A stretch of 64,000 nt of DNA from Elusimicrobia bacterium CG1_02_56_21 (GTDB lineage Bacteria; Elusimicrobiota; Elusimicrobia; Elusimicrobiales; UBA9959), in NCBI GenBank assembly GCA_001871115.1, contig MNUR01000046.1:13299-77298 (forward strand), read 5' to 3'. Below the pieces are notes generated by a model. It saw only the letters and a list, made by a program, of their open reading frames with translations. It did not search any database and was not told the DNA's origin. Position numbers and translations under genes: made by a program. This document shows positions 24,470-63,996 of the stretch, piece after piece. Numbering within the stretch: position 1 is the stretch's first letter; every line of letters starts with the position of its first letter.

Positions 24470-24508
24470 AGCCGGACATAAAATCGGCCGCTGTCTTTAT
24501 GTCCGGCT
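24470..24508. repeat. Perfect 13-bp-stem hairpin abutting the scramblase stop codon
   Basis: AGCCGGACATAAA, a 13-nt loop, then TTTATGTCCGGCT. The arm resembles the MITE terminal repeats with 4-5 nt deleted. Confidence 0.7.
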
Positions 24509-25098
24509 TATTTCTCGAAATATACCATGTCTATAAGGAACAGGGCCCCGAGCAGCGCGGCCTTGTGTTCAGTATCAGCGCCCTGCGGAAAATTAGCGCT
24601 GAAATTATCCGAGTCGGTAAAAGCTTCCTTCCCCAGGCCGCTCCAGTTTTTGACTATTTCCCCCGACTCCCTGCCGTCTTTAGAGATCCTGAAGGTCCAG
24701 GGATGGAGCACGGGCGCGCAGATGCTGTACAGCGCGGCGCCCCGCGAATCGGTAACCGAGAATTTTTTGGTCAGTATTGAGAACTCCCGCTTGACCTGCC
24801 CCAGCAGTTTGCCGTCGGAATTATAAACTTCGATCTCATGGAAGTAAAACCGGAAGGGCTTAACGCACTTCATCACCGGCCGGCCGTCCGTGGACAGGAT
24901 GTGCATGCTGAAAGGCCTCATCGCCTTAAGCAGCATCCTGAGCAGGACCGGGCTTTCCTCAGCCGCCCAATAGAGCTGCTGGCCGGAAGCGTCAAGGACG
25001 GCGTACCTGTTCTTTGTCTCAAAACCTGTTAAGATCTCCCCCCATTCCTTCTTCTGTTTAACAACCAGCGATTCCGCGGCTTTTAATTTTTCCATCAT
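24508..25098 (-). CDS. Phospholipid scramblase family protein (PF03803-like)
   Basis: 196 aa. 'LVVKQKKEWGEILTGFETKNRYAV' and C-terminal 'NWSGLGKEAFTDSDNFSANFP...ALLGALFLIDMVYFE' closely parallel human PLSCR1 '[24 protein letters not shown]...GACFLIDFMFFE'. Confidence 0.85.
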   Translation of the reverse strand: MMEKLKAAESLVVKQKKEWGEILTGFETKNRYAVLDASGQQLYWAAEESPVLLRMLLKAMRPFSMHILSTDGRPVMKCVKPFRFYFHEIEVYNSDGKLLGQVKREFSILTKKFSVTDSRGAALYSICAPVLHPWTFRISKDGRESGEIVKNWSGLGKEAFTDSDNFSANFPQGADTEHKAALLGALFLIDMVYFEK

Positions 25099-48709: not shown

Positions 48710-49167
48710 TTACAGCCCCCGGCCGTCAGCAGCGGCTTCCTCTATCAAGTCCGCCCTTAATCTGAGCGGGTCGGGGCCGTAATCGATAAGCCCGATATCC
48801 CAAAGTTCAAAGTCATAATATTCATCGGGCGTCAGCATCCGCAGTTTAAACACGATCTGGCTGCCGCTGGTAGTGCTCCATCTCTCGGACACATTCTCTA
48901 ATATGAACCGGCTGCCAGCAGGCAGCAGCACAGGCGTTTTACCTTCCTCATAAGGGCAGGGATCCCGGCAAGCGAGTGAGCGTTCCCCTCCCCTGGCACC
49001 GAGAGGCTTATTTCCCTGAAGCCCTGTGTATTCACCCTGAGCGCGGTCTTTGTAGAGCAGACTTTCCCTATGATGCCGGCATAATCCGGCGTTTTAGCCG
49101 GGTCCTCGCTGCAGCCGGACAGCGTAACACCGGGCAGCACAGCCGCTAATACAGATTTTAATCCCAT
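48710..49167 (-). pseudogene. Lipoprotein gene split over two overlapping frames (possible frameshift)
   Basis: ORF 48898..49167 begins MGLKSVLAAVLPGVTLSGC (lipobox). ORF 48710..48931 is in the adjacent frame, which stays open back to about 49095. No SD or start suits the second ORF. Confidence 0.4.
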
Positions 49168-49173
49168 ATTTTT

Positions 49174-49181
49174 ATTCTACA
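49174..49181 (-). promoter_or_regulatory. -10 TG-TAGAAT, 6 nt upstream of ATG 49167
   Basis: Minus-sense GGTTTTGTTTTGTAGAATAAAAATATG. Confidence 0.45.
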
Positions 49182-49209
49182 AAACAAAACCGCCGGGCTG
49201 CCCCGGCGG
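49181..49209 (-). terminator. GC-hairpin family copy H5
   Basis: CCGCCGGG-CTGC-CCCGGCGG plus TTTTGTTTTG in minus sense, 25 nt after the OPT stop. Confidence 0.75.
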
Positions 49210-49233
49210 TTTTAAGTGTCGTGTCCCCAGTGA

Positions 49234-51111
49234 TCAATTAAAGAACTGCATCAGCACCGCCAGCGCGGGGAGCAGGATAGAACCCACCATCGCCTCTCCG
49301 GCCACCAGGCCCGAAGCCAGGGGCGTAGCGTAAAGGTCGAAAGAGTTCCCTTCGCCCGGCGCGAACCTGTGCCAGACGGCAGAGACCACGCTGCCGATGG
49401 CGATGCCGATATTCAGGGAGGCGGGCAGGATCAGCGCGAAACCCAGCGCAGCGGGGATAGGCACCATCCAGAAGCGGCTTGTTTCGTGGCCCTCCTCGCT
49501 GGTTTTCTTGAAAGCGAGCAGCAGCTCGAAGAAAACTCCTATGAAGATAGCGATGATAGACGCCTGCAGCGCGCCGTGCGGCAGGTACGACAGGCCTTTC
49601 TCCATCACTATAGCGAGCGTAGCGATCTTGAGTCCCGTCGGGGCGGCAAGCTGGCCCGGCTCCAGGCCTATGCCGTAGGTCCGCTCCAGCATATTGAACA
49701 TGAACGGCGTCAGGATAGCGCCTATCGGTATCACTATCATCTGGGCCAATATCAGGGTCTTGAACCTGCCGCCCAGGCGCTGGGCCACCCAGAACGAGGG
49801 CACCACGTTCTCCGAGGTGGCCTGCGGGTTGGCGCTGATATAGGCGGCGGTCAGGTTGGACCTGATATGGGCGGGCCAGATCAGCCCGAACAGGAACTGC
49901 GTGGCGTTGGCCATGAGAGATACCGGGCCGGAGCCGGTGATCCCCAGAACCCGGAGGCCGGCGAAGATCAGTATAGGCTGGATGGCTATCGCCAGCGCCA
50001 CCTGCTGCCAGGGCATGGCGAACCAGGTGCTGGTCATCCAGACCAGGAGTATCACGCTGACGGCAATGCCCGTTATGGTCCACCAGAGCGGGATAGTCTC
50101 GTCGGCCAGGGACTTCAGCGAATGCTTCTCGAACTTGACCTTGTCCTTATGCAGGAAATGGAGAACTATCGGGATGATCACACTGGTCAGCGCGGCCGCT
50201 ATCATCATGGCCGTAGCCGGCCACATCATCCACTGCACCACGTACTTGAAGTGGGAAGAAGCGCCGGCGAACTCCGCGGCCTTGCCGCAGGTAGTATTCA
50301 GGAAATCCATCGCGGCCGCCTTCTGCGTTCCGTCCAGGCCGCCCACGGAGTTAAGGGTGTTCAGGCAGTTGCCGAAGTGCTCCTGGGTCACGCCGGAAAG
50401 GGCGGAGAACTTAGCCACCGTTTCGCCGAAGGAGCTGACCAGCCAGGTTCCAAGCAGGCCTGAAAGCCCCACTGAGAGCGGGACCAGCATCCCGATGCCG
50501 AAAGCCGCGAACTCCGCCCCGATAGAAATATTCAGGGCCGCATTACCGACGACAGATGGAATGACTCCGAGACTGTCCCGCAGAAAAGTCAGGAAGCCGG
50601 CCACTCCCGTGCTGAGCATAAGCACGTCGCGCCGCCTCTTGGTGACGACCGTCGCTTTAGGGTCGGTCAGCGTCTGGGCCACGGCCAGCGTGGCTTTGCT
50701 GGTGGGCCAGGGAAGAGAACGGTCCTTCAGAATGGAACTTCTGGGCAGGATACCCATGAAGATACCGAGGTTGGCCGAGACGAGCAGCCAGAGGAACATC
50801 TGCCAGGTAGACAGGTTGAAACCGATATTGCGCCCGAAGACGTTCTGGATATAGAAGAAGGCCGCGAGTATCACCACCATGAATGCGATGCTGGACACCA
50901 GGCCTATCATGGCCTGGATGATATTGAGCTCTATGGCCAGCTCCTGGCCCTTCATCCGCTTGCCCAGCACATAGGCCGCCAGGAACATGCCGCCCATGGT
51001 CAAGTCCACGCTCTGCCCCAGCTTCAGCGTCACATACGGCGTAGCGGCCGCGGCCACCGCGCACAATAAACCACCAAGCAGCAAAAGTCTCCAGTTCAGT
51101 TCCTTCATCAT
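49234..51111 (-). CDS. OPT family oligopeptide transporter
   Basis: Start set at 'MMKELNWRLLLLGG' (SD AAGGAGA). Polytopic. 'LPWPTSKATLAVAQTL' is OPT-like. Confidence 0.85.
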   Translation of the reverse strand: MMKELNWRLLLLGGLLCAVAAAATPYVTLKLGQSVDLTMGGMFLAAYVLGKRMKGQELAIELNIIQAMIGLVSSIAFMVVILAAFFYIQNVFGRNIGFNLSTWQMFLWLLVSANLGIFMGILPRSSILKDRSLPWPTSKATLAVAQTLTDPKATVVTKRRRDVLMLSTGVAGFLTFLRDSLGVIPSVVGNAALNISIGAEFAAFGIGMLVPLSVGLSGLLGTWLVSSFGETVAKFSALSGVTQEHFGNCLNTLNSVGGLDGTQKAAAMDFLNTTCGKAAEFAGASSHFKYVVQWMMWPATAMMIAAALTSVIIPIVLHFLHKDKVKFEKHSLKSLADETIPLWWTITGIAVSVILLVWMTSTWFAMPWQQVALAIAIQPILIFAGLRVLGITGSGPVSLMANATQFLFGLIWPAHIRSNLTAAYISANPQATSENVVPSFWVAQRLGGRFKTLILAQMIVIPIGAILTPFMFNMLERTYGIGLEPGQLAAPTGLKIATLAIVMEKGLSYLPHGALQASIIAIFIGVFFELLLAFKKTSEEGHETSRFWMVPIPAALGFALILPASLNIGIAIGSVVSAVWHRFAPGEGNSFDLYATPLASGLVAGEAMVGSILLPALAVLMQFFN

Positions 51112-51231
51112 GTCTCCTTCCGGCCTTTTAGCCGGAGTTATCCGAATTGTAAGAGTATTATCCCGGCGTCGCGTTCTTAAAAAAAGTCTTTCCGCCGTTC
51201 TTAGCATTAATCATACAAAAGAGGCCCGCCA

Positions 51232-51265
51232 CAAAACAAAACCGCCGGGCTGCCCCGGCGGTTTT
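51232..51265 (-). terminator. GC-hairpin family copy H6 (sequence identical to H5 over 35 nt)
   Basis: ACAAAACAAAACCGCCGGGCTGCCCCGGCGGTTTT, 22 nt after the stop of the 51287 gene. Confidence 0.75.
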
Positions 51266-51286
51266 GTACTAAATGCTGACGCTCCT

Positions 51287-53146
51287 CTACTGGAGGTTCA
51301 CGTGACTCTGGTTGATATAGCCCTCGCTCCAGTCCCCGCCGCTCATTGCGGACTTGCGGACCTTGAAATAACCGTTCTTCTCGCCTATTATCAGTACTTT
51401 CACACCGCGGTCCAGCTTGGTAATAGTGCTGGAGAAGATCCCGCTGGTGCCTTTCCTTACATGGGCGCCGTTACTTGACACGACCCCGACCTTATTGGGA
51501 TTCGTCCTGGAATACATCTGACGGGCATCTCCTACAAGCTTGCCCTTTTCTGAGAACGTCACATAAAGCGCGTCCGCGTCCGGGGCTACGACATCATAGA
51601 GCTTGCCGATATTAAGGTTCAGCACGGCGTTTGCCCTGCCTCCCACTCCGTCGGCACGCAGATCGGACACAAGGACTATCTCCCCGCGCTCGCTCTTGAC
51701 CACTATTGCGACGGTATCGGACGCCTGAAAACCGAAGTTCTTTACTTCGGCCCTCATCATGATATTTTCGCTGGCTTCGAACTGTCCGTTATTGTTCTCA
51801 TCGTAGAAAGTGACGCCTGCAACCTTCAGGACCGCGTTCTCCTGGTAGAACTTATCCGCGGCCGCAATACCGGACTGTTTACCGGCCTCGAAGGCGCCGG
51901 GATAGACCTGGGCCGTCATGTTCTGGTAGCCCTCGTTGTAGCCGCGTTTCGTCTGTTCGGCGCAACCGGCCGCAAAACCTTCATTCTGACCGGCGGCCCG
52001 ACCATTCCCCTGTCCCTGGGCTCTTTGATCGGCATATTCCCTGTTGCTGTATTCATTATAATACGCGCTGTAGGCCGAGTTATAGGCCGACGAATAAGCT
52101 TCCTGGTAGCCCTGCTCTTTTCCCTCGGCATAGCCGTTGCGGTAGCTGATAGCGTACTGCTCGTCGTATGCCCACCGGTACGCGGTATTGTATCTTTCAT
52201 TATAACCCTGCCGCTTGGCGTCATCATATGCCCGGCGGTAGCTATTGCGATAACCCTCTTTATAACCTTCGTCATAGGCGCGTTTTTCTTCCGGAGTCGC
52301 ATACCCGCCGCGGGCCATCTCTATAGGGAGATCCATACCGCGCGTAAGCAGACCGCTTTTCTCGAAGCCGGCCCTCCTGGCAGTGGATAAAGCGCTTTGG
52401 AGTTCGGCTTCGCGCTGACTGAAACCGGCCTGATAGCCGGCCTTTTGACCGTTCGCGGCCTCCGTGACCGACGCATCAGACTGCCCTTTCGCGTATCCTG
52501 AACTATAGGAAGCGGCATCCTGCAGCCCTAATTCTTTAGCCGAGGCAAAGGCAACATTGTAGCCGTCGGTGTATCCCGCGTCATAACAGCGGCGCTGGCC
52601 GGCCTGTGTACCGTTATTAATACCGGTGTTCTGGCCTTGGGTGCTTCCGTTCAGTATTCCAGCGGACTGATTAACACCCCAACCATCTCTTTTACCGGCA
52701 GCTCGGCCAGCTCGCTCACCTTCATTACTGCCGTTCCTGCGCCCGTCCCATTCTCCGGAATTGATACCATCCGAGTAGCCATTCCGCCTTCCTTCCCTGA
52801 CGCCTGCTTCGGAACCAGCCCTTATGCCGGCGTTACGAGCTTGAGTGGTATCTACAGGCTGAGGAGGCTGGGGAGGCTGGCTGCCGCCATTGTTGCCGGG
52901 CTGGCCGCCGTTATTGCCGCCGTGATTGTTGCCGGGCTGGCCGCCGCCGGGCTGCTGCCCATGCTGACCAGGCTGCCACCCTTGGGGCAGAGGTTTAGCT
53001 TGAAAATCCTTCCGCTCTAATCTGGTTTGCTCAATGGTTTCGCTAACATCCGACAGCTGCATAACCCCGTCGCTTGATGCGAATACCATGCCCGAAGCTA
53101 TCAAAAGAGAGGGAAACAACGTCGCCGCGCATAATGTTTTTTTCAT
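51287..53146 (-). CDS. Large secreted protein: low-complexity G/Q/N/P region, Tyr-periodic repeat region, C-terminal SH3b domain
   Basis: Start at 'MKKTLCAATLFPSLLIASGMVFA' (an alternative ATG is at 53152). 'AYDEGYKEGYRNSYRRAYDDAKRQGYNERYNTAYRWAYDEQYAISYRNGYAEG'. C-terminal 'GAHVRKGTSGIFSSTITKLDRGVKVLIIGEKNGYFKV'. Confidence 0.7.
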   Translation of the reverse strand: MKKTLCAATLFPSLLIASGMVFASSDGVMQLSDVSETIEQTRLERKDFQAKPLPQGWQPGQHGQQPGGGQPGNNHGGNNGGQPGNNGGSQPPQPPQPVDTTQARNAGIRAGSEAGVREGRRNGYSDGINSGEWDGRRNGSNEGERAGRAAGKRDGWGVNQSAGILNGSTQGQNTGINNGTQAGQRRCYDAGYTDGYNVAFASAKELGLQDAASYSSGYAKGQSDASVTEAANGQKAGYQAGFSQREAELQSALSTARRAGFEKSGLLTRGMDLPIEMARGGYATPEEKRAYDEGYKEGYRNSYRRAYDDAKRQGYNERYNTAYRWAYDEQYAISYRNGYAEGKEQGYQEAYSSAYNSAYSAYYNEYSNREYADQRAQGQGNGRAAGQNEGFAAGCAEQTKRGYNEGYQNMTAQVYPGAFEAGKQSGIAAADKFYQENAVLKVAGVTFYDENNNGQFEASENIMMRAEVKNFGFQASDTVAIVVKSERGEIVLVSDLRADGVGGRANAVLNLNIGKLYDVVAPDADALYVTFSEKGKLVGDARQMYSRTNPNKVGVVSSNGAHVRKGTSGIFSSTITKLDRGVKVLIIGEKNGYFKVRKSAMSGGDWSEGYINQSHVNLQ

Positions 53147-53290
53147 TAACATACCCCTGTGTCCCGGATTTCCGGAGAGTTGACTGGATAAGATATTGTA
53201 ACCTAAGCAGCCAGGTAGACATAGAGCAGAAGGGCCCAGTGCGCCGGAGAAAAACGGCGCCCGGGATATAGGCCCTTTGGCCCCACCCCC

Positions 53291-53320
53291 AAAAGCAAAA
53301 CCGCCGGAATTACCCGGCGG
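53291..53320 (-). terminator. GC-hairpin family copy H7
   Basis: CCGCCGG-AATTAC-CCGGCGG plus TTTTGCTTTTGGGGG in minus sense. Confidence 0.6.
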
Positions 53321-53413
53321 CTTAGCTCCTAAACGCCAAATCTCGAAACCTGCCCCTTTTCCCCGCGTATTCAACTGTATTCGCACCCAAAAAAACTCTC
53401 CCGGGACCCTTTC

Positions 53414-54034
53414 CTATTTTATCTTTCTGAATAATGTGTAAATATAAGGTCTCGGGTCGCCATTGGGATTTATAAACGTGTAGTCAAAATGCGAAATAAG
53501 TTCGAATGACGGTCCAAGTTTTTTGGACAGCTCCGCCACTGAATACCTGTGCAGGGGCAGCCCGGCGCATTTAGACGCGCCTGTCTTAGAGAATTCCAAG
53601 AATATCGCATAGCCACACGGCTTAAGGAAAGACCTTACATTTCTGAAATATCCGTTAATAGCGTCTTTATCGCGCAAAAAATGCAGGACTGCCCTGTCGA
53701 TCCAGATGTCCGCCTTGGGCAGAGTGCGCGGCAGCGGCCGGGAGATGTCCCGGCAAAGAAAGTCTATTTTTCCTTTTTTATCGTTAACCCTCTTTTTCAC
53801 GCGGCTTAAAGCCTCGGCGCTGATGTCGTTTACAGTTATTTCTGCGCATTTGAGGAGCAGTTCCTCTATCAGTACCGAGGTTCCTGCCCCGGGAATGAAC
53901 ACCCTGGCTTTCTTCAGCCCCGGGACCAGCTTCAACAATTTAAGCGTTTGAGAAGCGTTCTTTTCATACCAACCCAGATCCTGGTCTTCCGTTCCGGAAA
54001 ATATGGCATCCCAATGCTTGCAATTAGTTTTCAT
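53414..54034 (-). CDS. Class I SAM-dependent methyltransferase
   Basis: Start at ATG 54034 (SD AAGGA). Motif I 'VFIPGAGTSVLIEELL' and post-I 'VNDIS'. Confidence 0.7.
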   Translation of the reverse strand: MKTNCKHWDAIFSGTEDQDLGWYEKNASQTLKLLKLVPGLKKARVFIPGAGTSVLIEELLLKCAEITVNDISAEALSRVKKRVNDKKGKIDFLCRDISRPLPRTLPKADIWIDRAVLHFLRDKDAINGYFRNVRSFLKPCGYAIFLEFSKTGASKCAGLPLHRYSVAELSKKLGPSFELISHFDYTFINPNGDPRPYIYTLFRKIK

Positions 54035-54226
54035 GATTTTATCCTTAAACCGCAAAAAGTTCCGCCCTTTAACCCCGGCGGCTTCGCTTCCAAGCGCTAA
54101 TTCTCAGGACCCGCCCCTTCTCCCTTTCCCTTCCCCGTGAGAAAACCGGAAGCAAAAGGGGAAGGACAGTAAGCTTATAGCGGCCACCGCCGCCCATTTT
54201 TGGGCAAGAAGGCGCATTATTCCCAA

Positions 54227-54706
54227 CTACTCGCGAAAAACCGCCACGGCGCCGTAACCGCGGGCGCCCGGCGGGGGAAGAGGGGCAGCAGATTTTCTTC
54301 GCGCCGGGCTACGTTCCGCATAGATGTCGCAGGCGGAAATTATATAGACTGGCCGCAGAAAAAGCATAATGACGCCGACCAAAACCACCAGTTGAACTCC
54401 GGCCCAGAAATAGAATTTAAAGATACTGCGCTCTACGGGCGCCTTGAAGTCAACAAGGTCCGGGAAATAAACGAAAAACAATATCGTGCCGATATAGATA
54501 GCGATGCCTGTTATCCAGCACAAGCAGAAATAGCCCCTGCGCAGTATAGCCACAGCGGCGAACTTTTTGCGCACCAGGTCCACCGAACGCTTGCCCGCCC
54601 AGCGCCAGACCTTCTCGGGGATCCGGCCCAGCATCTGCACCCACAGGTTATAGCCGGCGGCTATGCAGGCCGCTGCAGCAGGGTGAAAGTAATTATTTCT
54701 TTTCAA
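54227..54706 (-). CDS. Membrane protein, function unknown (start uncertain)
   Basis: 159 aa from a TTG start, with 3 TM helices. It overlaps a 52-codon upstream ORF in another frame. Confidence 0.4.
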   Translation of the reverse strand: MKRNNYFHPAAAACIAAGYNLWVQMLGRIPEKVWRWAGKRSVDLVRKKFAAVAILRRGYFCLCWITGIAIYIGTILFFVYFPDLVDFKAPVERSIFKFYFWAGVQLVVLVGVIMLFLRPVYIISACDIYAERSPARRKSAAPLPPPGARGYGAVAVFRE

Positions 54707-55017
54707 GGAAGAATAATTTCAGGCTAAACCTGGTCCGCTTCCAGAAACCGGATAGCCCGGTACCCGGGGATGGGCGCAAACCGGAGGCCTCCGTCAGGAC
54801 CAAAACCTCGTTATTTACCGCCTTCATTTCGCTGAGATAGTTATTTCCCATGGGACTCCGGAATCAATATTAAATAATATATTCCCACGAAAATGCGATA
54901 GCCCCCTACTAAAGGCGGTATCACTCTGGCTCCGCCCTGACATTAAGCTGGAACGGCCGGGAGCGGAAGGCACACCATAAACCACAAGAGACACCCGCTG
55001 CCTTTACCTCTCTGATT

Positions 55018-55045
55018 AAACAAAACCGCCGTGCCTCCCCGGCGG
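55018..55045 (-). terminator. GC-hairpin family copy H8
   Basis: CCGCCG-TGCCTCCC-CGGCGG plus TTTTGTTTAATC in minus sense, 35 nt after the REC gene stop. Confidence 0.65.
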
Positions 55046-55079
55046 TTCATGACAAGCGCGGCAATTTCCAAATTAACGG

Positions 55080-55481
55080 TCAATGTGCCTCGTGCTTATG
55101 GGTCTTTTCCCCTTTAGCGGGCAGCGCGTGATGGATAGCCTTGAGCACTTCTTTTGTAGAAAGGACTTTTGACAGCGTTCCCCGGCAATTGGGAAGCTTG
55201 GAGAAACCCCGCACCAGCATTGGGTCGGCGCCTATGGCGGACAGCACTATAAACGGTATCCTGGAGGTTTTATGCATATTCTTTATGGCAACGGCCACGT
55301 CGTGCCCGGTCATGTCCCCTAGATTATAATCCAGAAGCACGAGGTCGGCCAGATAAGACAAAGCTATCCTAACCCCCGCCGCCCCGCTACCGGCAATTTG
55401 CGTCTTATACCCCGCGGTCTTAAGGCAATCCTCAAGCATGCAGGAAAGTTCTATATTATCTTCAACAATAAGTATTTTCAT
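55080..55481 (-). CDS. Single-domain response regulator (receiver only)
   Basis: Start at 'MKILIVEDNIEL'. 'DLVLLDYNLGDMTG'. Confidence 0.8.
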   Translation of the reverse strand: MKILIVEDNIELSCMLEDCLKTAGYKTQIAGSGAAGVRIALSYLADLVLLDYNLGDMTGHDVAVAIKNMHKTSRIPFIVLSAIGADPMLVRGFSKLPNCRGTLSKVLSTKEVLKAIHHALPAKGEKTHKHEAH

Positions 55482-55530
55482 ACAGTTTCGCCTTAAACGC
55501 AGCAACAGAAATCTGAATCGAATACCGTAT

Positions 55531-55546
55531 TAAGTATTGTGTCACC
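55531..55546 (-). repeat. 16-nt junction motif, copy A (minus-sense GGTGACACAATACTTA)
   Basis: Abuts the stop codon of the truncated scramblase fragment. Other copies are at 60742-60757 and 63759-63774. Confidence 0.7.
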
Positions 55547-55726
55547 TTATTTACCCTTGAGGAACAAGCGCGCCAGGGTGGAGCCTTCTTCGGCGGCCCA
55601 GTACAGCTGCCGCTCCGAGGTATCCAGTACCGCATATTTGTTCTTCGTTTCGAAGCCGGTCAGGATCTCCCCCCATTCCTTCTTCTGCCGCACTATAACC
55701 GCTTCCGCCGTTTTCAGTTTTTCCAT
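55547..55726 (-). pseudogene. N-terminal fragment (59 aa) of a second scramblase-family gene
   Basis: My translation is MEKLKTAEAVIVRQKKEWGEILTGFETKNKYAVLDTSERQLYWAAEEGSTLARLFLKGK*. It aligns colinearly with residues 2-58 of 24508..25098 and then stops. Confidence 0.75.
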
Positions 55727-55855
55727 ATTTTATCCGACCCGGTGGATACAGGTGACGCTGCTTACCATCTTCCTATCTTGAGAACAGTACTGAATGAAGT
55801 GATACTTAGGAAGTCAGGAAACAGCGTCCCCCATGTCTCCCTTCTAACTGTCTCC

Positions 55856-56140
55856 CTATTTGTGGGATACGGAAGAAGTATGCGCGCGGCGCAGAAGCAC
55901 TTCATTAATGAACGTCTGGTAGCCGATACCGCGATGTTTGGCCTGTGCATGCGCCCATGCCAACGCTACGGGATGGATACGGATATGAACATCCCGGTAT
56001 TTAGCGGCGCCTTTTGGCGGGCGGCCCCTGGCGGGGCGTTTCACATGCAGGGTCCTCTCGATAGCTTTTTTAAAAGCCAGCGTTTCCTGCGGCGTGACCC
56101 GGCGCGCTTTTGAGAAATAAAATTCCTTTACTTTCTTCAT
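55856..56140 (-). CDS. brnA: BrnA-type antitoxin (RHH/CopG-like C-terminus)
   Basis: 94 aa. 'VHIRIHPVALAWAHAQAKHRGIGYQTFINEVLL' matches the BrnA pattern. Lies downstream of brnT. Confidence 0.7.
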   Translation of the reverse strand: MKKVKEFYFSKARRVTPQETLAFKKAIERTLHVKRPARGRPPKGAAKYRDVHIRIHPVALAWAHAQAKHRGIGYQTFINEVLLRRAHTSSVSHK

Positions 56141-56420
56141 ACTTCTTCCTTTCGCGACGATTCGCGCGCCGCGCGCTGACGATCCTTATATTTCCCTTCG
56201 GCGGACGTATCGTAAACACAATGACCACAACTCTTTCCCCAGAGTCACCGATCAGCCATTGCCTGTGCTCTGCAGCGGAATGCCTCTCATCGTCCATTAT
56301 CAAAGCGTAAGGGTCGTCAAAAGCAAATACCGCCATTTCGAAACTGATACCGTGCTTAAGGGGGTTTCGTTCCGCTTTTTCGTCATCCCATTCGAACTTC
56401 GTATTTATAGTGTACACCAC
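56070..56420 (-). CDS. brnT: BrnT-type toxin (DUF497 ribonuclease)
   Basis: 116 aa (GTG start). 'FEWDDEKAERNPLKHGISFEMAVFAFDDP...IRIVSARRANRRERKKYEE'. Confidence 0.8.
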   Translation of the reverse strand: MVYTINTKFEWDDEKAERNPLKHGISFEMAVFAFDDPYALIMDDERHSAAEHRQWLIGDSGERVVVIVFTIRPPKGNIRIVSARRANRRERKKYEESKGILFLKSAPGHAAGNAGF

Positions 56421-56472
56421 AAATCAGGCATAGTCAAGGCCGCCTTTAACCCCCCTATTTTCCCCCAAAGAA

Positions 56473-56498
56473 GGTCAAAAGCAAAGACCTGCCCCCCC
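56473..56498. repeat. 24-nt motif GGTCAAAAGCAAAGACCTGCCCCC, copy a
   Basis: Inverted-repeat core AGGTC-N9-GACCT followed by a C-run. Lies about 55 nt upstream of brnT. Confidence 0.7.
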
Positions 56499-56504
56499 TC
56501 CTTC

Positions 56505-56789
56505 CTACTTCTTTTCCCCTATAGGGAGATTAAATGCTTCCGATAATAGACGTTTCCCTACAGCTGGCCGGCGAGGTTTCCATAGCTTATGGTCAACCTC
56601 TCTCTTAGTGTGGTATAAGTGATGATTGCCCGTCAATATCATCAAGCTCCGGAGTTGTTTTAATGGAGCTTCGCCATGCTGCTCTTTTATCTCTTCCAGA
56701 GTGTTATCGGCAGTTACCGGCCATTGACGCCCGAGATATTGTCCCTTGAACATGGCTATCAGTGCGTCATACACTTCATCATCACTCAT
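56505..56789 (-). CDS. Small hypothetical protein
   Basis: Start at 'MSDDEVYDALIAMFKG' (SD GGTGGAG). The track's longer start reads through repeat copy b. Confidence 0.45.
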   Translation of the reverse strand: MSDDEVYDALIAMFKGQYLGRQWPVTADNTLEEIKEQHGEAPLKQLRSLMILTGNHHLYHTKREVDHKLWKPRRPAVGKRLLSEAFNLPIGEKK

Positions 56790-56824
56790 ACAAAATCCAC
56801 TCCACCTTTTCCTCGGACTTGATA

Positions 56825-56848
56825 GGTCAAAAGTAAAGACCTGCCCCC
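56825..56848. repeat. 24-nt motif GGTCAAAAGTAAAGACCTGCCCCC, copy b
   Basis: About 36 nt upstream of ATG 56789 and just downstream of the GNAT gene stop (56861). Confidence 0.7.
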
Positions 56849-56860
56849 ATCCCCGCCGCA

Positions 56861-57487
56861 CTATCCCCTAGGCGCTCTTTCATCCAGGTGGGACGCCTCA
56901 CCGAACATTTTATAGAACGCTTCTCGCCTGTCCCTCGGCAGTATCTTTATTAGTTTCACAAGTGCTCCCCAGTTTTCGGTCATCTCGAAACCGGAGATAT
57001 CAAAACCTTGTTTGAGTTTAAGTATTAGGATTCTTCGGTTCGTTGGCTTATGATGACTTGAGATACGCTCATACCCAAGCTCTCTCAAATAGCGCATGAA
57101 AGTTTCAGAGAATGCAGTGAACAGCCCCCGATTCTGGTATTCCGGGAGGATTCCGCTATTCCACATATAAAATGTCTGATGATCTTCCGCTTCGCCCATA
57201 TGCCAGCCAATAGGTTGCCCTTTCGGATTTAAAAACAAAAACCACTCATGATGAATAACCGAGTAGAGTTTTCGCAGCGGCGCCATCTGCTGCCGGCGCT
57301 CTGGGGAAACCCTGAAACATAAGCAGTCATCCCCGGGCGGGAAGACTTTATTGTACGCCTTGCCGAGAAAGTCATAAACCTCTTTCGCGTCAGAAGGCCT
57401 TATGCAAAACCCCTCTTTTGTCTTCAAAGGAAAATATTTAGTCCTGATCCCGCTAATATTTAGTTTCTTGGCAATTGTTTTGTTCAT
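56861..57487 (-). CDS. GNAT-like N-acetyltransferase
   Basis: Start at 'MNKTIAKKLN' (SD GGAGA). 'PEYQNRGLFTAFSETFMRYLRELGYERI'. The track's longer start runs into the MITE. Confidence 0.6.
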   Translation of the reverse strand: MNKTIAKKLNISGIRTKYFPLKTKEGFCIRPSDAKEVYDFLGKAYNKVFPPGDDCLCFRVSPERRQQMAPLRKLYSVIHHEWFLFLNPKGQPIGWHMGEAEDHQTFYMWNSGILPEYQNRGLFTAFSETFMRYLRELGYERISSHHKPTNRRILILKLKQGFDISGFEMTENWGALVKLIKILPRDRREAFYKMFGEASHLDERAPRG

Positions 57488-57510
57488 AATTCTCCATTTA
57501 CTAATCCCTA

Positions 57511-57674
57511 GGAGCCTGTCCGACATAAGGCTTTCATGGCGAAATTGACGATTTAAAGCCGAGCCGAAGCGCCGCGAAACGAGCACCCTCGACGGAGGTT
57601 GTAAGTTGAGCGGCGCAAAGGCGCAGGCAAAAAGCGGCAATTGCAGACGAAATTGCTTATGTCGGACAGGCTCC
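57511..57674 (-). mobile_element. MITE-like element, copy 3 (inverted relative to copies 1 and 2, more diverged)
   Basis: GGAGCCTGTCCGACATAAGG...CTTATGTCGGACAGGCTCC. The internal sequence aligns to the reverse complement of copy 1. Confidence 0.85.
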
Positions 57675-57753
57675 AAGCATACGGGGTATCGGGAGTAGCC
57701 CGACTTATCGAGTTATCATACAGCGTCCTCTATCCCTCCTGGCACCCTTTTCC

Positions 57754-58506
57754 CTATTCCTCTACAACTACGATATTCCACATCCCAGGATTAGGGTTCT
57801 TAATAAGAACCGCGCTTTGTCCGCGCCAGAGAATTGTGGATTTTATATTTGCCAGCTTCTTGAAGCGCTCAAGGCTTTTACATTTAATTACTACAGCGGC
57901 GACCTTGGTTGACCGGCCTGATTCTATGAAGAGCCGTATCCCTCCTAAACTAACGTCTTTCCCATTAAGACTCTTGCCAAAGACTTTTTCAAGTTTCGGC
58001 CCGTCAGAACCTCTCACGATAAGCTCTAAACCGGCGATAGTATGCGCCGTGTTCGGGTGAGGCGGAGGCGTCACGCGTTTTTTCGTGGGATGGGGCTCGT
58101 ATTCGGTGAACCACAGGTAGATGTTCTTAAATTTGGGGCTTAAAAATGTCAGAAAGTTCCAGCCGGGAAGAGCGCTTTTGCTGTCTTTCTTCCAGGCGTA
58201 GTTCTTATGGATGTACTTGGCCTTTATGTCCTTCCGGGCTTTGAGGGCCCCGAAGTACCGCTTAAGCGGCCCTGTGTACCGCAGTGAAACGCCGGGCTTA
58301 TCGATGGGTTCCCCGCCCTTTCCTACCCGGACAAATTCCAGGTAAACGCGCCCGGAACCGTGCTTGAACATTATGAAGCGGCAGAATTGCTTTCCCGGAT
58401 GCTCGACCTCGTTTTCTGACAAAACGAAACCGGATTTCCCCAGGGCCTTGAAAAACCCGTGCCCGGCATCTTCCGTATAGCTATGATCGAAGTTTATGGA
58501 TTTCAT
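57754..58506 (-). CDS. Glyoxalase-like-domain (VOC superfamily) protein
   Basis: 250 aa. 'INFDHSYTEDAGHGFFKALGKSGF...VYLEFVRV' and 'HPNTAHTIAGLELIV' resemble the PF13468-type layout. Confidence 0.45.
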   Translation of the reverse strand: MKSINFDHSYTEDAGHGFFKALGKSGFVLSENEVEHPGKQFCRFIMFKHGSGRVYLEFVRVGKGGEPIDKPGVSLRYTGPLKRYFGALKARKDIKAKYIHKNYAWKKDSKSALPGWNFLTFLSPKFKNIYLWFTEYEPHPTKKRVTPPPHPNTAHTIAGLELIVRGSDGPKLEKVFGKSLNGKDVSLGGIRLFIESGRSTKVAAVVIKCKSLERFKKLANIKSTILWRGQSAVLIKNPNPGMWNIVVVEE

Positions 58507-58555
58507 AATTTCAGTTCGTATAAAGACGCCCTGCGGCCTTTTCCACTGCGGCCAT

Positions 58556-59242
58556 TCAGGCCATTCTGGCTACAGTAACGTACTTCGGGGTAAAACCGCG
58601 CGCACGGGCGAGTTTCTGATTGGCCGGCATGAAGGACCTGGTCTTGAATTCTACCGGCAGCCTCGATTTTTTCCACAGGCCCCAGAAGTGCTCGCTCTCT
58701 GCCACGATTTCGCTTTTAGATAAGTCCGGGGCGGCCCAACCCCACAATATCCAGTCGCAGTTCTCGCCAAGATAGTTCTTGCGCTTTACTATAGCTGAAA
58801 GGGTAACAGGCTTCCCGTCCTTGAAAAGGGACGCATGCCTGGCTTTTTTCATAAGCCCGACCGCGATGCGGAGCTCTTTTTTGAACGCAGGCCCGAGCTT
58901 CTTATACTTCTTTACGATCTCATTGGAACCTTTAAAGAAAAGTTTCAGCATTTTAACCTGCGGCAGACTGCCGGGGGCCAAGGTTTCCGGCAGCGCCACT
59001 TTCTTAACCTTTATCTGCGATGGCTTAGCGGAATAGATAATCGCCACATTATGTTTTGGCTGCAGTGATTTGCTCACATGCCACTCGTTCTTTATCGGCT
59101 CGTCGAATGTAAAGACCGCGTGGCTAGCCCCGGCAGGCCAATCCTTGTGCATACGGCTGAGTACCTTATTGTCCAGGTCTTTGAAATTTTTAAGCTTGTA
59201 CTGCTCGAAAGTCCCTATCCGCTTCAGTTTTGTTGGTTCCAT
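58556..59242 (-). CDS. Member 2 of the ~230-aa paralog family
   Basis: 228 aa. 'ASLFKDGKPVTLSAIV...WILWGW...LSKSEIV...NQKLARARGFTPKYVTVARM'. Confidence 0.6.
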   Translation of the reverse strand: MEPTKLKRIGTFEQYKLKNFKDLDNKVLSRMHKDWPAGASHAVFTFDEPIKNEWHVSKSLQPKHNVAIIYSAKPSQIKVKKVALPETLAPGSLPQVKMLKLFFKGSNEIVKKYKKLGPAFKKELRIAVGLMKKARHASLFKDGKPVTLSAIVKRKNYLGENCDWILWGWAAPDLSKSEIVAESEHFWGLWKKSRLPVEFKTRSFMPANQKLARARGFTPKYVTVARMA

Positions 59243-59275
59243 TTATACGCCCCCTATGATGACCAATATATTCAT

Positions 59276-59284
59276 ATAGTAGCA
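59276..59284 (-). promoter_or_regulatory. Extended -10 TGCTACTAT
   Basis: Minus-sense GGTTTTGTTTGCTACTATATG, about 34 nt upstream of ATG 59242. Confidence 0.4.
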
Positions 59285-59310
59285 AACAAAACCGCCGGGC
59301 TTCCCCGGCC
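59284..59310 (-). terminator. GC-hairpin family copy H9
   Basis: CCGCCGGG-CTTC-CCCGGCC plus TTTTGTTTG in minus sense. Confidence 0.65.
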
Positions 59311-59355
59311 GTCTCAAATGACCTATAAATAATTACAATTTAGTATTCAACGTCC

Positions 59356-59922
59356 CTATCTCCCTGCTTTCTCTGGCTCCATCCAGTTAACCGTGCGGTA
59401 ACCGGATATATCCAGTTCGCCTTTTAGCAGCACATGGGGGGCAAAACCCCATATCAAGGGAATTGTCTTATCGGCGAAACATTCTCTATAGTAGGCCAGG
59501 TTGCGTTCCGGCATGCCTGACAGTTCTAGCACACGTTCTTCCCTGACAGGTTCAAAATCCGACTCCGGAAAAATACGGGAGCTCCGGTTTTTACGAGTAT
59601 TTTTATAAATAATAGACGGGAACGCAAGAACATCCGCGACAGGCACCTCGAACCACTCGCGCGAGTACTTGTGATGTTCAAAGCCGATAGCTGAAAGCGT
59701 TTCGCAGATCAAAAAAGGATGCATCAAGGAAAAATGGATCACATCGTTCCATAAAGCGTTCAGTATAGGGACCTTCGCATCCAACAACCATTCCCGGCCC
59801 TCATATTTCTTGACAGCCCCTGCATAGACCTCTGGGAGCCGCCCCCTAAGCGTATTAAGCGGATAAAGCCTGTCCCCGGCAAAATCAGGCCTTTTAGCGT
59901 GATAAACATATGTCTTCGGCAT
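59356..59922 (-). CDS. Conserved-looking hypothetical protein (188 aa)
   Basis: 'YHAKRPDFAGDRLYPLNTLRGRLPEVYAGAVKKYEGREWLL...PILNALWNDVIHFSLMHP'. I cannot name a family. Confidence 0.5.
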   Translation of the reverse strand: MPKTYVYHAKRPDFAGDRLYPLNTLRGRLPEVYAGAVKKYEGREWLLDAKVPILNALWNDVIHFSLMHPFLICETLSAIGFEHHKYSREWFEVPVADVLAFPSIIYKNTRKNRSSRIFPESDFEPVREERVLELSGMPERNLAYYRECFADKTIPLIWGFAPHVLLKGELDISGYRTVNWMEPEKAGR

Positions 59923-59929
59923 CCCCCTT

Positions 59930-59938
59930 ATTCTACCA
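59930..59938 (-). promoter_or_regulatory. Extended -10 TGGTAGAAT, 7 nt upstream of ATG 59922
   Basis: Minus-sense GGTTTTGTTTTGGTAGAATAAGGGGGATG. Confidence 0.45.
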
Positions 59939-59966
59939 AAACAAAACCGGCGGGATTCCCCGGCGG
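59938..59966 (-). terminator. GC-hairpin family copy H10
   Basis: CCGGCGGG-ATTC-CCCGGCGG plus TTTTGTTTTGG in minus sense, 21 nt after the 59987 gene stop. Confidence 0.7.
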
Positions 59967-59986
59967 CTCGGCTCTGTTCTGGGAAG

Positions 59987-60694
59987 TTACGCGCCTATCC
60001 GTTCAAACAGCACCCGGTCAGTCTGGAAATCCATATCAGCAAAGAACCGGTGGTAGGCGTCCATCTTGGCTGAGTTGAACAGGGCCACCCGGTGCTTGCC
60101 TGAATTTTTCAGCCATACAGCTTCCTGATATTTGATGCTCCGCCGTTCTGCCGGTGTAAGCCCTTCAAGCTTGGGATGCCAAGACATGTAATTGTCCGTA
60201 AAGCCGTACATGTTCTTCCGCGTGAAATATGCACCATGCGTAAGGAACTTGCCTTTTTTGAAAAAGAGCAGCGCTTTTGCCTTTGGCAGGAACTTCTTCA
60301 CGTAAGGCTCAAGGTCATGCCTTGCGCTGTAACCGGCTTTTTTGCCTTCCTGTTTTATAAGTTTCCTATGTTCCAGGCGGGTATAGCGGACAAGCTCGGC
60401 CAGGTTTTTAGGCAGGCGAGAGGTGATGCCTGCCGCCGCCGGTTCAGGCGGAAGTTTCACCCCGGACTCCGGTGAAAAGCAGTAGAACATCTGATGGTAT
60501 TTAGGGGACACCTTGAAGCGCAGCGGCTTCAGGGACTTCAGCGGAACCTGTTTAAAAATAAACCCGCAGTAAGGCTTATCTTCCGGCAGGTCCAATGAGT
60601 CCAGAAGCGTCTGGTCTATAGCAGAACGGTCCCCGACCTTGTAGGTATTCCCCCTCGGATCTTTCCTGTAAAGACTAATTTTTATTTTTCCCAT
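59987..60694 (-). CDS. Member 3 of the ~230-aa paralog family
   Basis: 235 aa. 'RLPKNLAELVRYTRLEHRKLIKQEGKKAG...ALLFFKKGKFLTHGAYF...LTPAERRS...YHRFFADMDFQTDRVLFERI'. Confidence 0.6.
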   Translation of the reverse strand: MGKIKISLYRKDPRGNTYKVGDRSAIDQTLLDSLDLPEDKPYCGFIFKQVPLKSLKPLRFKVSPKYHQMFYCFSPESGVKLPPEPAAAGITSRLPKNLAELVRYTRLEHRKLIKQEGKKAGYSARHDLEPYVKKFLPKAKALLFFKKGKFLTHGAYFTRKNMYGFTDNYMSWHPKLEGLTPAERRSIKYQEAVWLKNSGKHRVALFNSAKMDAYHRFFADMDFQTDRVLFERIGA

Positions 60695-60741
60695 ATCCTC
60701 ATTCTCCTAAATAACCCGGAACTCCCGGCCAGCGCCGCAAT

Positions 60742-60757
60742 TAAGTATTGTGTCCCC
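60742..60757 (-). repeat. 16-nt junction motif, copy B (minus-sense GGGGACACAATACTTA)
   Basis: Lies 8 nt after the stop of 60766..61452 and about 48 nt before ATG 60694. Confidence 0.65.
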
Positions 60758-60765
60758 GGATCCCT

Positions 60766-61452
60766 TCACATGCGCACTATGCGGATACGGTCAACTTTGA
60801 AGCCGAGGCCCGCAAAGAACCTGACCGACGCCTTATCGAAATGATCCAGGCCCACTACCAGCCGGCCCTTGGAGGCCGAGTTCATCCAGGAAGAAGCCTG
60901 ATGCCAAACGCTGCGCACTTCAGCGGGGGAAAGACGCACGAAAGGACAATGCCAGGCGACGACATCGACCACCTCGCCTTTCTCCTTGTACTTAAACAAT
61001 GAATAGAGCGCAACCGGCTTGCCCTTCTTGAACATTATCAGGGACCTTGTCTTTGGCAGGTACTTCGTTTCATATTTCTTTGCTTCGGTCAGGAAGAAGC
61101 CTCCCGCTTTAGCACCCCACTCCTTCAGGTAAGCCCGGTGCGCCAGCCGGTTAACCCGCTTTAATTCCGCGAAATTCCTGGGCGGGCGGGACTCTATCCC
61201 CGCGGCGGGAGCCGCTTTGCCGGAGTACCCGAGTTTTTTCCCGGTAGCGCTGGCGCCCAGGCGCAGCAGGCAGCCGGCAGGTATCTTTGCCGGGGGAAAC
61301 TTGGCGAGCTTCAGCGTCTTCTTGAACTCAAAGCGGACGCTGGGCACCTCCTCCGACCAGCCATAGGCCGTCAGTAAAGCCTTATCTATGACCCGTGGAA
61401 CCGCTATCTTATGTATCTTCCCCATATTCTTAAACGCGCTGGTTTTTTTCAT
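60766..61452 (-). CDS. Member 4 of the ~230-aa paralog family
   Basis: 228 aa. 'RPPRNFAELKRVNRLAHRAYLKEWGAKAG...SLIMFKKGKPVALYSLF...LSPAEVRS...VRFFAGLGFKVDRIRIVRM'. Confidence 0.6.
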   Translation of the reverse strand: MKKTSAFKNMGKIHKIAVPRVIDKALLTAYGWSEEVPSVRFEFKKTLKLAKFPPAKIPAGCLLRLGASATGKKLGYSGKAAPAAGIESRPPRNFAELKRVNRLAHRAYLKEWGAKAGGFFLTEAKKYETKYLPKTRSLIMFKKGKPVALYSLFKYKEKGEVVDVVAWHCPFVRLSPAEVRSVWHQASSWMNSASKGRLVVGLDHFDKASVRFFAGLGFKVDRIRIVRM

Positions 61453-61480
61453 ACTGTTCCCCTTAAACTCGCCTTCTGCT

Positions 61481-62320
61481 CTATTTAGCCGCCCAGCCCA
61501 GGCCGGCGGTTTTCAGCATGCGCAGTTGCTTCGGCGTATCCCGCAGCATCCTGCCGGCGCGGTAATGCAGACCGAATATGATCTGCGGCGCATTGAAATT
61601 GCCGCGGGCCTTTACATCCTTTAAACATCTCTCGGCAAAGCCAGCATTATGCGCCACCCTGCAGGAGTCGGCCAATATTTTAAGGTCTTTTGCTTTTATC
61701 TCCTCCGTAACGCCCTCATACCGCTTACGGAAAGCGGCCAGTAGTTCCTTGTCCGATGCGTCCCGGTAAACTTCGCTATGCGCCAGCAGGGCGGCCGGCA
61801 GCTTCTTGCGCCGGGGAGGCTTGATCTTGGGATAGCCGACGGCCAGAGAGACCGCCGGAACTACTCCTTTAGGGAGTCTGCACATGCGCCGTATTTGCGC
61901 CATGCTGTCGAAGACCGGTCCTATATAGACCGACCCCAGCCCAAGCGCGTCCGCCGCCACGCACATATTCTGCGCGCAGATAATGGTATCCTGAAAAGCT
62001 ATCCAGAAGGGCCGCAGGGACCGGTCGGCGGAATAAGGCGCGTTTTCCATGCGTGCCCACCGCTTATGCCGGTGCAGGTCAACGCAGAACACAAAATGCA
62101 GCGGGACTTTAGCCAAAAAAGGCTGCCAGCAGAACTTTGCCAGCTTCTTTATCGCAGCCGGCTTCTCTATCTTTATTATCGAATACGGCTGGAGGTTGCC
62201 GCCTGTAGGAGCATGGATCCCCGCCTCAACAAGTTGCGCTACCACAGCAGGCGGAACCTTTTTGTCTTTAAAAACCCTGCAACTGGCCCGGTCCGTCAAA
62301 AGCTTCAAAGTAGCGTTCAT
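61481..62320 (-). CDS. Nitroreductase family protein
   Basis: 279 aa. 'RASCRVFKDKKVPPAVVAQLVEAGIHAPTGGNLQPYSII'. Confidence 0.8.
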   Translation of the reverse strand: MNATLKLLTDRASCRVFKDKKVPPAVVAQLVEAGIHAPTGGNLQPYSIIKIEKPAAIKKLAKFCWQPFLAKVPLHFVFCVDLHRHKRWARMENAPYSADRSLRPFWIAFQDTIICAQNMCVAADALGLGSVYIGPVFDSMAQIRRMCRLPKGVVPAVSLAVGYPKIKPPRRKKLPAALLAHSEVYRDASDKELLAAFRKRYEGVTEEIKAKDLKILADSCRVAHNAGFAERCLKDVKARGNFNAPQIIFGLHYRAGRMLRDTPKQLRMLKTAGLGWAAK

Positions 62321-62344
62321 GCTTTCTCCCTTAATGCTCCCTCA

Positions 62345-62353
62345 ATTCTACCA
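62345..62353 (-). promoter_or_regulatory. Extended -10 TGGTAGAAT
   Basis: Minus-sense GGTTCTTTTTGGTAGAATTGAGGGAG, 25 nt upstream of ATG 62320 (SD AAGGGAGA). Confidence 0.45.
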
Positions 62354-62380: not shown

Positions 62381-62446
62381 TGTTAATGACCGTCAACAAT
62401 CAGTCATTTTGCGATCAGCTACCTATATCTCCTCGCATCTGCCCTC

Positions 62447-63711: not shown

Positions 63712-63758
63712 CTCCGCTTCCCGCTAAATCACAAGACCTGACCATCTCCCCGAGCAGA

Positions 63759-63774
63759 TAAGTTATGTGTCACC
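63759..63774 (-). repeat. 16-nt junction motif, copy C (minus-sense GGTGACACATAACTTA)
   Basis: Abuts the stop codon of the truncated ORF6N fragment. Confidence 0.65.
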
Positions 63775-63855
63775 TTAACCCCCGAACATAACCCTGTGGC
63801 CACGTATAAGAAATATCTTCTTTTCGATCATCTCTAGTGAAATCAGGTCCTTCAT
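63775..63855 (-). pseudogene. 26-aa N-terminal remnant of an ORF6N/KilA-N-type DNA-binding (antirepressor-like) gene
   Basis: SD GGGGGAGA then ATG. MKDLISLEMIEKKIFLIRGHRVMFGG*. 'IExKIxLIRGxxVM' is the characteristic ORF6N start, and the domain is cut off after it. Confidence 0.5.
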
Positions 63856-63895: not shown

Positions 63896-63971
63896 GACGA
63901 ACCCGAGAAGGGATTGTCGGGCAAAAAACGCTAAAAAGTACTGGGATGGCGAGCGGGGTGTGGGGCGTAAA

Positions 63972-63996
63972 GGTCAACAGTAAAGACCTGACCCCC
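63972..63996. repeat. 24-nt motif GGTCAACAGTAAAGACCTGACCCCC, copy c
   Basis: Third copy of the AGGTC-N9-GACCT plus C-run motif, at the window edge. Confidence 0.65.

Follow-up and report, generated by a model that had tools for sequence, protein, structure and literature searches.

A 16-nt motif that recurs beside broken genes in a 64-kb stretch of the Elusimicrobia bacterium CG1_02_56_21 genome (the window, meaning the whole stretch of DNA that was analyzed) can be identified from sequence comparisons as the end, or one terminal inverted repeat (TIR) arm, of a mobile element of the TIRtron/TIRYT class, a known but barely studied kind of element. The window contains four orphan single arms with neither a partner arm nor a transposase, and two of them are joined at their outer edges to the 5' remnants of genes. 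It is very probable overall that the motif belongs to a 25-nt arm of the TIRtron/TIRYT family and that the two joints would have been produced by transposase-type breakage and rejoining at the outer edge of the arm. The first-pass annotation of this DNA had suggested the end of an inserted segment, or a site-specific recombination or cassette junction, and this reading is correct in kind but not in mechanism or generality. The end of a mobile element does stand at both break points, with the two genes joined exactly to its outer edge, and no inserted segment lies behind it.

The 16-mer GGKGACACAWWACTTA was found on the minus strand at all three previously reported sites, 55531-55546 (copy A), 60742-60757 (copy B) and 63759-63774 (copy C), and the same window scan with up to two mismatches allowed added a fourth minus-strand copy, D, with two mismatches at 49213-49228. 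These four occurrences compare with 0.05 expected, none of 100 shuffled sequences contained four, and a chance origin of the motif is excluded. A position-weight matrix derived from 232 arms of other genomes, among the matches listed, had A-D as its only hits in the window (scores in Table 1), whereas 20 shuffles peaked at 6.4 bits. All four copies are on the minus strand, which is the gene-sense strand, and the matrix scan of the window revealed no inverted partner arm for any of them. No Y1 transposase gene is present in the 64-kb window, and neither the window nor the few CG1_02_56_21 contigs examined yielded a TIRYT gene. The sequence is GGGGACAC in copies B and D and GGTGACAC in copies A and C, the latter two differing at position 3, where GGTG in place of GGGG departs from the GGGGWSAS signature; the GGTG variant also occurs in L119, L185 and L205.

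Table 1. Coordinates of the predicted TIR arms, of the adjoining genes and of the second repeat family in the window.
Feature	Position	Strand	Basis and remarks
Intact scramblase paralog, reference for the break point	24508..25098	-	Pfam positions 15-221 of 221, E 6.5e-49
Arm D	49210..49234	-	Degenerate orphan arm ATCACTGGGGACACGACACTTAAAA; 10.8 bits; not listed in the first-pass annotation
OPT transporter gene, intact, ends at arm D	49234..51207	-	Pfam
Response-regulator gene, 49 nt downstream of arm A	55080..55481	-	Pfam; ortholog comparison
Arm A	55528..55552	-	Orphan single TIR arm AAATAAGGTGACACAATACTTAATA; 32.8 bits; its TAA is the stop of the scramblase stump
Scramblase 5' stump, 59 aa	55547..55726	-	Pfam and paralog match; AUJ51_04850 in Elusimicrobia bacterium CG1_02_56_21 (exact protein)
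D5 arm	56472..56496	-	Repeat scan
D5 arm	56824..56848	-	Repeat scan
Arm B	60739..60763	-	Orphan single TIR arm GGATCCGGGGACACAATACTTAATT; 37.6 bits; starts 2 nt past the TGA of paralog 1
Paralog 1, intact 228-aa gene, ends at arm B	60766..61452	-	C-terminus matches homologs
Degenerate D5-like sequence GGTCAGGTCTTGTGATTTAGC	63723..63743	-	Starts 15 nt past the arm C 16-mer (12 nt past the 25-nt unit); decayed terminator next to it
Arm C	63756..63780	-	Degenerate orphan arm GGTTAAGGTGACACATAACTTATCT; 14.3 bits; its TAA is the stop of the ORF6N stump
ORF6N 5' stump, 26 aa	63775..63855	-	Native promoter region upstream; homologs in relatives
D5 arm GGGGTCAGGTCTTTACTGTTGACCT, single, just after the rpsJ terminator	63971..63995	-	Repeat scan

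Copies A and C are located directly behind the stop codons of a 59-aa Scramblase stump and a 26-aa ORF6N stump, in agreement with the earlier description of two recognizable domains cut short, and both stumps are true 5' remnants of genes. The 59-aa protein covers positions 16-71 of the 221 positions of the Pfam Scramblase family (E 1e-12) and is 74% identical to residues 2-58 of the intact 196-aa paralog encoded elsewhere in the window. At the DNA level, the stump aligns with this paralog at ~78% between the start codon and the sequence CTCAAGG, which stands 8 nt ahead of the motif, and diverges completely beyond it; a search for the remaining ~139 scramblase codons showed them to be absent from the window. 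The 26-aa ORF matches residues 3-25 of the full-length ORF6N proteins of relatives (E 4e-4) and has an upstream promoter region in common with their ORF6N genes; it is too short to obtain a Pfam score, and the 3' part of the gene was not found anywhere in the window. At both sites the homology to intact relatives stops no more than 1-2 nt from the arm's outer edge (position ~-8), which places the loss of homology near the motif, noted in the first pass, at the arm boundary itself. The in-frame stops of both stumps are supplied by the AATAA/TTAA of the arm. The 6-nt extension of the arm reads AAATAA in A and GGTTAA in C, and because AATTAA and AAATAA variants with such stops are known among the arms of other genomes, the stop codons of the two stumps belong to the arm.

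Junction A does not vary among the 10 contigs examined, which come from several groundwater samples; junction C is identical in both JGI contigs that contain it (L253 and L306). Since they are identical in all contigs examined, the two junctions are shared across samples and are not private to one assembly; no strain-level polymorphism in their presence was seen among these 10 and two contigs, respectively. In unrelated metagenomes there are scramblase N-terminal fragments, P0027 (L192) and P0030 (L190/L191), of 58-62 aa that are cut near the same residue. A shared hot spot for scramblase breakage was considered and dropped: the P0030 fragment has no arm behind it and is overlapped instead by a convergent GNAT gene, and the P0027 contig ends 1 nt past the stop codon.

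The other two copies are found behind intact genes. Copy B is located 8 nt past the stop of an intact 228-aa gene whose C-terminus matches its homologs, as initially noted, and copy D is located 5 nt past the stop of an intact OPT transporter gene, between this stop and an intrinsic terminator. In the relative L062, the equivalent spacer after the homolog of paralog 1 has no arm. A new gene unit was said to start 45-100 nt downstream of each of the three original copies; this applies to A, with 49 nt to the ATG of a response regulator, and to B, with 47 nt to paralog 2, but does not apply to C, where the next called gene is ~670 nt away. The only ORFs in this interval are two adjacent plus-strand ones at 63063-63395 (110 aa) and 63439-63741 (100 aa), both unmatched and uncalled, which point toward arm C, and a decayed terminator lies inside the second of them; this pair may be a disrupted gene.

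In the related contigs L205, L206 and L207, the orthologs of the response regulator downstream of arm A have a D5-like repeat (see below), a terminator and a TAGAAT box in front of them. The gene in the window lacks this module, and its upstream region consists of arm A and 49 unrelated bases, whereas the homologous module of the window stands 8 kb away, behind arm C. As the downstream response regulator has also lost its native upstream module, arm A has been the site of more than one rearrangement.

In other genomes, the repeat unit around the 16-mer is a 25-nt arm, of which the 16-mer forms the core, with the consensus AATT(C/A)N-GGGGACACAATACTTAATT. A scan with the pattern GGKGACACAATACTTAA in one genome per species returned at least 120 loci, a count that is uninformative by itself, as by our own arithmetic the whole collection should contain ~140 chance matches. 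Conservation extends beyond the search pattern, with AATT at positions -6 to -3 in 75-93% and TT at positions +17/+18 in 84-85% of 232 arms among the matches listed, and therefore the matches represent one family and did not arise by chance. The consensus of the same 232 listed arms is GGGGACAC. According to the record titles of the matches listed, the exact 17-mer is present in at least 14 phyla, including Pseudomonadota, Omnitrophota, Planctomycetota, Elusimicrobiota, Actinomycetota, Bacillota, Hydrogenedentota, Desulfobacterota, Spirochaetota, WOR-3 and others. A full-text search of the literature for the arm sequence retrieved no paper containing it.

The arms are arranged either in convergent pairs (119 of the 232 arms among the matches listed) or as single or other copies (113 of 232), and the 70 convergent pairs, with loops of 8-186 nt, compare with only 3 divergent ones in the same set. 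For example, the relatives L059 and L064 carry the motif as a perfect palindrome (e.g., ttccGGGGACACAATACTTAATTcccAATTAAGTATTGTGTCCCCggaa in L059), and a doublet of the GGTGAC variant is found in L205. In relatives, the doublets form hairpins of 20-23 bp (z = -13 and -7.6). The single arms of the window do not fold (z -1.1 to +1.1), the structure observed at D belongs to the adjacent terminator alone, and no sigma-70-like promoter match overlaps any of the window arms, which are probably inert scars. Tandem and nested groups of arms were found in L085, L086 and L168. At these loci (L085 ~2700-2950, L086 4170-4330 and L168 3940-4060), as well as in L089 and L137, partial arm units are repeated in tandem outside the left arm, e.g., seven copies of GATTCCGGGGACACC, and doublets are nested within doublets; these units look like the footprints of repeated insertion into or beside existing arms.

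Single arms of other genomes are mostly intergenic (83 of 93 among the matches listed), the remaining 10 being located inside ORFs of at least 90 aa, and 22 of the 83 intergenic ones lie no more than 40 nt behind a same-strand ORF of at least 90 aa. Many arms abut or overlap the natural stop codons of long, apparently complete ORFs. The first-pass annotation had considered that the motif might be found mostly away from gene truncations. This is largely the case outside the window: at the 120 loci listed for other genomes, the arm mostly forms a hairpin doublet, flanks a Y1 gene or stands a few bases behind an intact gene. Copies A and C are nonetheless located at gene stumps. Truncation is thus the exception among the arms, and B and D, directly behind intact genes, are of the ordinary type. 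The strand of single arms shows no significant bias relative to the GC skew (37 vs 29 among the matches listed, p = 0.39); therefore, a single-strand, replication-coupled mechanism receives no support. The GC skew has the same direction across the whole window. Likenesses to the promoters of SP6/K11 phage polymerases (GGTGACAC), to the -24/-12 spacing of sigma-54 promoters and to the XerC arm and spacer of dif sites were also considered and dropped, because a scan of viral contigs gave 56 single matches, one per contig, in a chance-like manner, the GC skew is uniform, and the motif is one arm of a palindrome.

Approximately 16 of the 120 loci listed contain a gene for a 220-236 aa protein adjoining the arm. 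In L152, L121, L169, L085 and L156, the arm is followed by 20-170 nt, the gene, 10-80 nt and an inverted arm, an arrangement that represents the full form of the element. The encoded proteins belong to the Pfam family Y1_Tnp (PF01797; IS200-like HUH) with E-values of 1e-12 to 1e-13, and their closest relative of solved structure is the E. coli TnpA_REP (4ER8). They score 63-66 bits against the NCBIfam model for the REP-associated tyrosine transposase (NF047646), the cutoff of which is 80, and have a C-terminal extension of ~80 aa without a Pfam HTH match at E<=1. Transposases beside identical arms are just 47-58% identical to each other. The related contig L205 also contains a Y1_Tnp gene, which is of another type. 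The mobility of full elements and doublets is evident from partial copies that are nested or in tandem. The name TIRtron has been given to RAYT-like genes enclosed by long terminal inverted repeats, and the name TIRYT to their enzymes; many TIRtron TIRs share the sequence GGGGWSAS, and the TIRs make up families whose copies are single, dimeric or grouped (Di Nocera et al. 2013, PMC3733652). Most TIRYTs fall into subclass 2.1 and have a C-terminal HTH extension (Quentin et al. 2018, PMC6006769). The enzyme to be sought for these arms is of the Y1/HUH tyrosine transposase type (TIRYT) and not a site-specific recombinase.

A second repeat family, D5, is present in the same region. The repeat GGGGKCAGGTCTTTRCTKTTGACC (GGGGTCAGGTCTTTAC...) has three minus-strand copies right behind gene ends and fits or nearly fits GGGGWSAS. 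A degenerate D5-like sequence follows arm C and is homologous to the module before the response regulator in L205 and L206. A metagenome scan for D5 returned 100 stretches, which contain many hairpin doublets. Among them, L225, L270 and L271 contain elements of 948-956 nt in which inverted D5 arms surround the gene for a 282-291 aa Y1_Tnp protein; the stop codon of this transposase lies inside the right arm, and the protein has a weak C-terminal match to HTH_3 (E 0.017). On these grounds D5 is the TIR of a second TIRtron family, and the region carries the scars of both families.

The gene setting of the arms is a split ribosomal cluster. The minus-strand genes rpoC-rpsL-rpsG-fusA-tuf-rpsJ end ~68 nt beyond the end of the window (rpsJ; L001 7909-8253), and the remainder of the cluster (rplC to rpsD) begins at 17021, so that the S10 ribosomal cluster is interrupted between rpsJ and rplC by ~47 kb (17021-64000) of mixed accessory and housekeeping-like genes. 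This stretch holds all four motif copies, and its genes are miscellaneous and mostly co-directional; they include aspartokinase, CstA, OPT, MATE, GNATs, BrnTA and response regulators. Three diverged paralogs of 228-235 aa with 25-33% identity (58556-59242, 59987-60694 and 60766-61452) have no Pfam match. We found 25 homologs of these proteins, all from metagenomes or MAGs, the sole one with a source name being from Elusimicrobiales, and in the relatives they are always located in different mosaic neighborhoods. Whole-window scans detected no Rfam families and no tRNAs.

Several other repeated modules were observed in the window. A stereotyped terminator family, CCGCCGGGGAAGCCCGGCGGTTTTGTTTTG, occupies 14 sites in the window (e.g., 49180-49209, 51232-51261, 59937-59966 and 62351-62380); these terminators often run straight into (G)TAGAAT, several copies stand behind arm-like or D5-like sequences, and the combination looks like a combined terminator/-10 box module. 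A MITE-like element of ~168 nt with 18-nt inverted ends GAGCCTGTCCGACATAAG is present in three copies (17862-18029, 23482-23650 and 57512-57677), the third of which falls within the 5' region of a GNAT gene as called by its longest ORF (56861-57676). Finally, a hairpin-plus-promoter module, CCCGACAGCCCCTTGTCGGGTTG...CTGCTATGCTAT, is found in the window at ~63865-63910, in L059 at 9290-9360 and 16810-16880, in L205 at ~255-300 and at the left ends of L270, L271 and L225. It precedes ORF6N genes, D5-family transposase genes and another Y1_Tnp gene, which suggests a promoter reused by the mobile genes of this lineage.

The origin of the stump-arm joints can be pictured as follows. Besides the full form with its transposase gene, arms also spread without the gene in a REP-like manner, as doublets with loops of 8-186 nt and as singles near stop codons. 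An arm would already have been present downstream of an intact scramblase or ORF6N gene, and a deletion of ~0.4-0.5 kb, from inside the gene to the exact outer edge of the arm, would have removed the 3' part, the joint being made by transposase-type cleavage and rejoining at this edge. HUH transposases cut and rejoin DNA at defined element edges, as established for IS608 and TnpA_REP, and because of this property the arm-anchored deletion is a plausible route; it would also be the simplest and most economical one. In the relative L059, an arm-like sequence with two mismatches lies 87 nt behind a full-length ORF6N gene, and the D5-like sequence CAGGTCTTT comes 15 nt further on; the order of the arm and then the D5-like sequence is the same after the ORF6N stump of the window. 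This comparison, the one basis of the deletion route, is a weak one, with two mismatches in the arm-like sequence and just an 8-mer in common with D5.

A possible but rather unlikely alternative is the insertion of a TIRtron or doublet into the intact genes, followed by later deletions that took away the inside of the element, its second arm and the distal part of the gene. The outer arm edge abuts the gene in both cases, as insertion predicts, and full elements and doublets of the family exist and are evidently mobile. However, this route takes two or more events at each site, and both times the end of the second deletion must coincide exactly with the inner edge of the arm; neither a partner arm nor a 3' gene part remains in the window, and elsewhere only 10 of the 93 single arms among the matches listed are found inside an ORF of at least 90 aa.

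Site-specific recombination or an integron-like cassette junction served by a dedicated recombinase, as suggested by the first-pass annotation, is very improbable. The setting does contain co-directional small accessory genes, toxin-antitoxin pairs and GNAT genes, and the homologs in relatives lie in quite different neighborhoods, in the manner of cassette arrays. However, attC-type sites of the form RYYYAAC...GTTRRRY are missing from positions 48800-64000 (0 matches vs a mean of 2.5 in shuffles), and none of the window ORFs scanned against Pfam showed a recombinase, integrase or transposase domain, which leaves the cognate recombinase expected in the first pass without a candidate there. In addition, most gene boundaries lack the motif, and elsewhere it forms inverted repeats around Y1 transposase genes. 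It is equally improbable that the arm is a host regulatory element, either a promoter or operator or a 3'-UTR/terminator RNA element, as might be proposed from the positions of A and B 47-49 nt upstream of start codons and of B, C and D 1-50 nt before terminator-like hairpins, given that this 25-mer is spread over at least 14 phyla, no sigma-70-like match covers the arms, the single arms are unfolded with the structure at D being that of the neighboring terminator, no Rfam family matches, and a promoter makes no sense at D, between a stop codon and a terminator.

With the arm assigned to the TIRtron/TIRYT class, the tempting interpretation of the motif as a new cassette or recombination site is replaced by a concrete and checkable identity. 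TIRtron/TIRYT elements have barely been studied in the literature, and the present analysis provides a 25-nt arm with sharp limits, together with full elements and their gene-to-arm distances, demonstrates a very wide phylogenetic spread and adds a second family, D5. To our knowledge, there is no biochemistry for any TIRYT, and the two natural stump-arm joints offer substrates for testing TIRYT binding and cutting sites. For annotation, two pseudogene stumps are explained and the arms can serve as markers of rearrangement. A bolder and doubtful reading, to which we give somewhat less weight than to the insertion route, would be that TIRYT arms are not merely selfish scars and act as live breakpoints for precise Y1-made deletions and fusions that reshape accessory arrays, including the variable 47-kb region between rpsJ and rplC with its arms of two TIRtron families, and that the arm is under pan-bacterial constraint. 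In this reading, the identity of the 17-mer across 14 or more phyla, beside transposases that are just 47-58% identical, would hint at a recognition code or a host function beyond transposition.

Among the known systems, integron attC arrays resemble the region in the co-directional small accessory genes that vary between relatives, whereas attC sites and IntI were not found in the region and the motif does not stand at every gene boundary. Bacterial MITEs are similar to the doublets, which consist of two TIRs around a short non-coding loop and would presumably move in trans via the transposase of the full element. Classical MITEs are derived from insertion sequences with DDE transposases and make target-site duplications; unlike them, the elements described here have no evident target-site duplication, and the window holds half-elements alone. 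The IS200/IS605 elements (IS608 and ISDra2) have the same Y1 HUH catalytic domain (PF01797), and the chemistry to be expected by analogy, strand cleavage and rejoining at fixed ends of the element with no duplication of the target, would be the same. Their ends are subterminal hairpins without TIRs, whereas here 25-nt inverted repeats are present and not hairpins alone; the TnpA of IS200/IS605 is much shorter, and the replication-related strand bias of these elements is not seen for the arms.

The REP/REPIN and RAYT system is closer, having a homologous transposase (E. coli TnpA_REP, 4ER8) and non-autonomous short repeats that are intergenic, mostly downstream of genes and present both as singlets and as hairpin doublets. 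However, the arm starts with AATTNNGGGG and has no GTAG or CGTC tag, the single arm is not itself a palindrome and does not fold, whereas a REP unit is an imperfect palindrome of 20-40 nt, and the arm-linked protein remains at 63-66 bits, below the equivalog cutoff of 80. REPs are also lineage-specific, whereas this arm is common to many phyla. Compared with the described TIRtrons/TIRYTs, the differences are that this particular arm was not found in the literature and is near-invariant in Elusimicrobiota and at least 13 other phyla, and that the window contains orphan single arms alone, two of them at exact gene-stump joints and with GGTG (A and C). The likenesses are that GGGGACAC fits GGGGWSAS near the outer end, that a Y1/HUH RAYT-like gene lies between inverted arms in L152, L121, L169, L085 and L156 (none being in the window), that the repeats occur as single, dimeric and grouped copies, and that the 3' arm can overlap the end of the gene, as seen in the D5 family.
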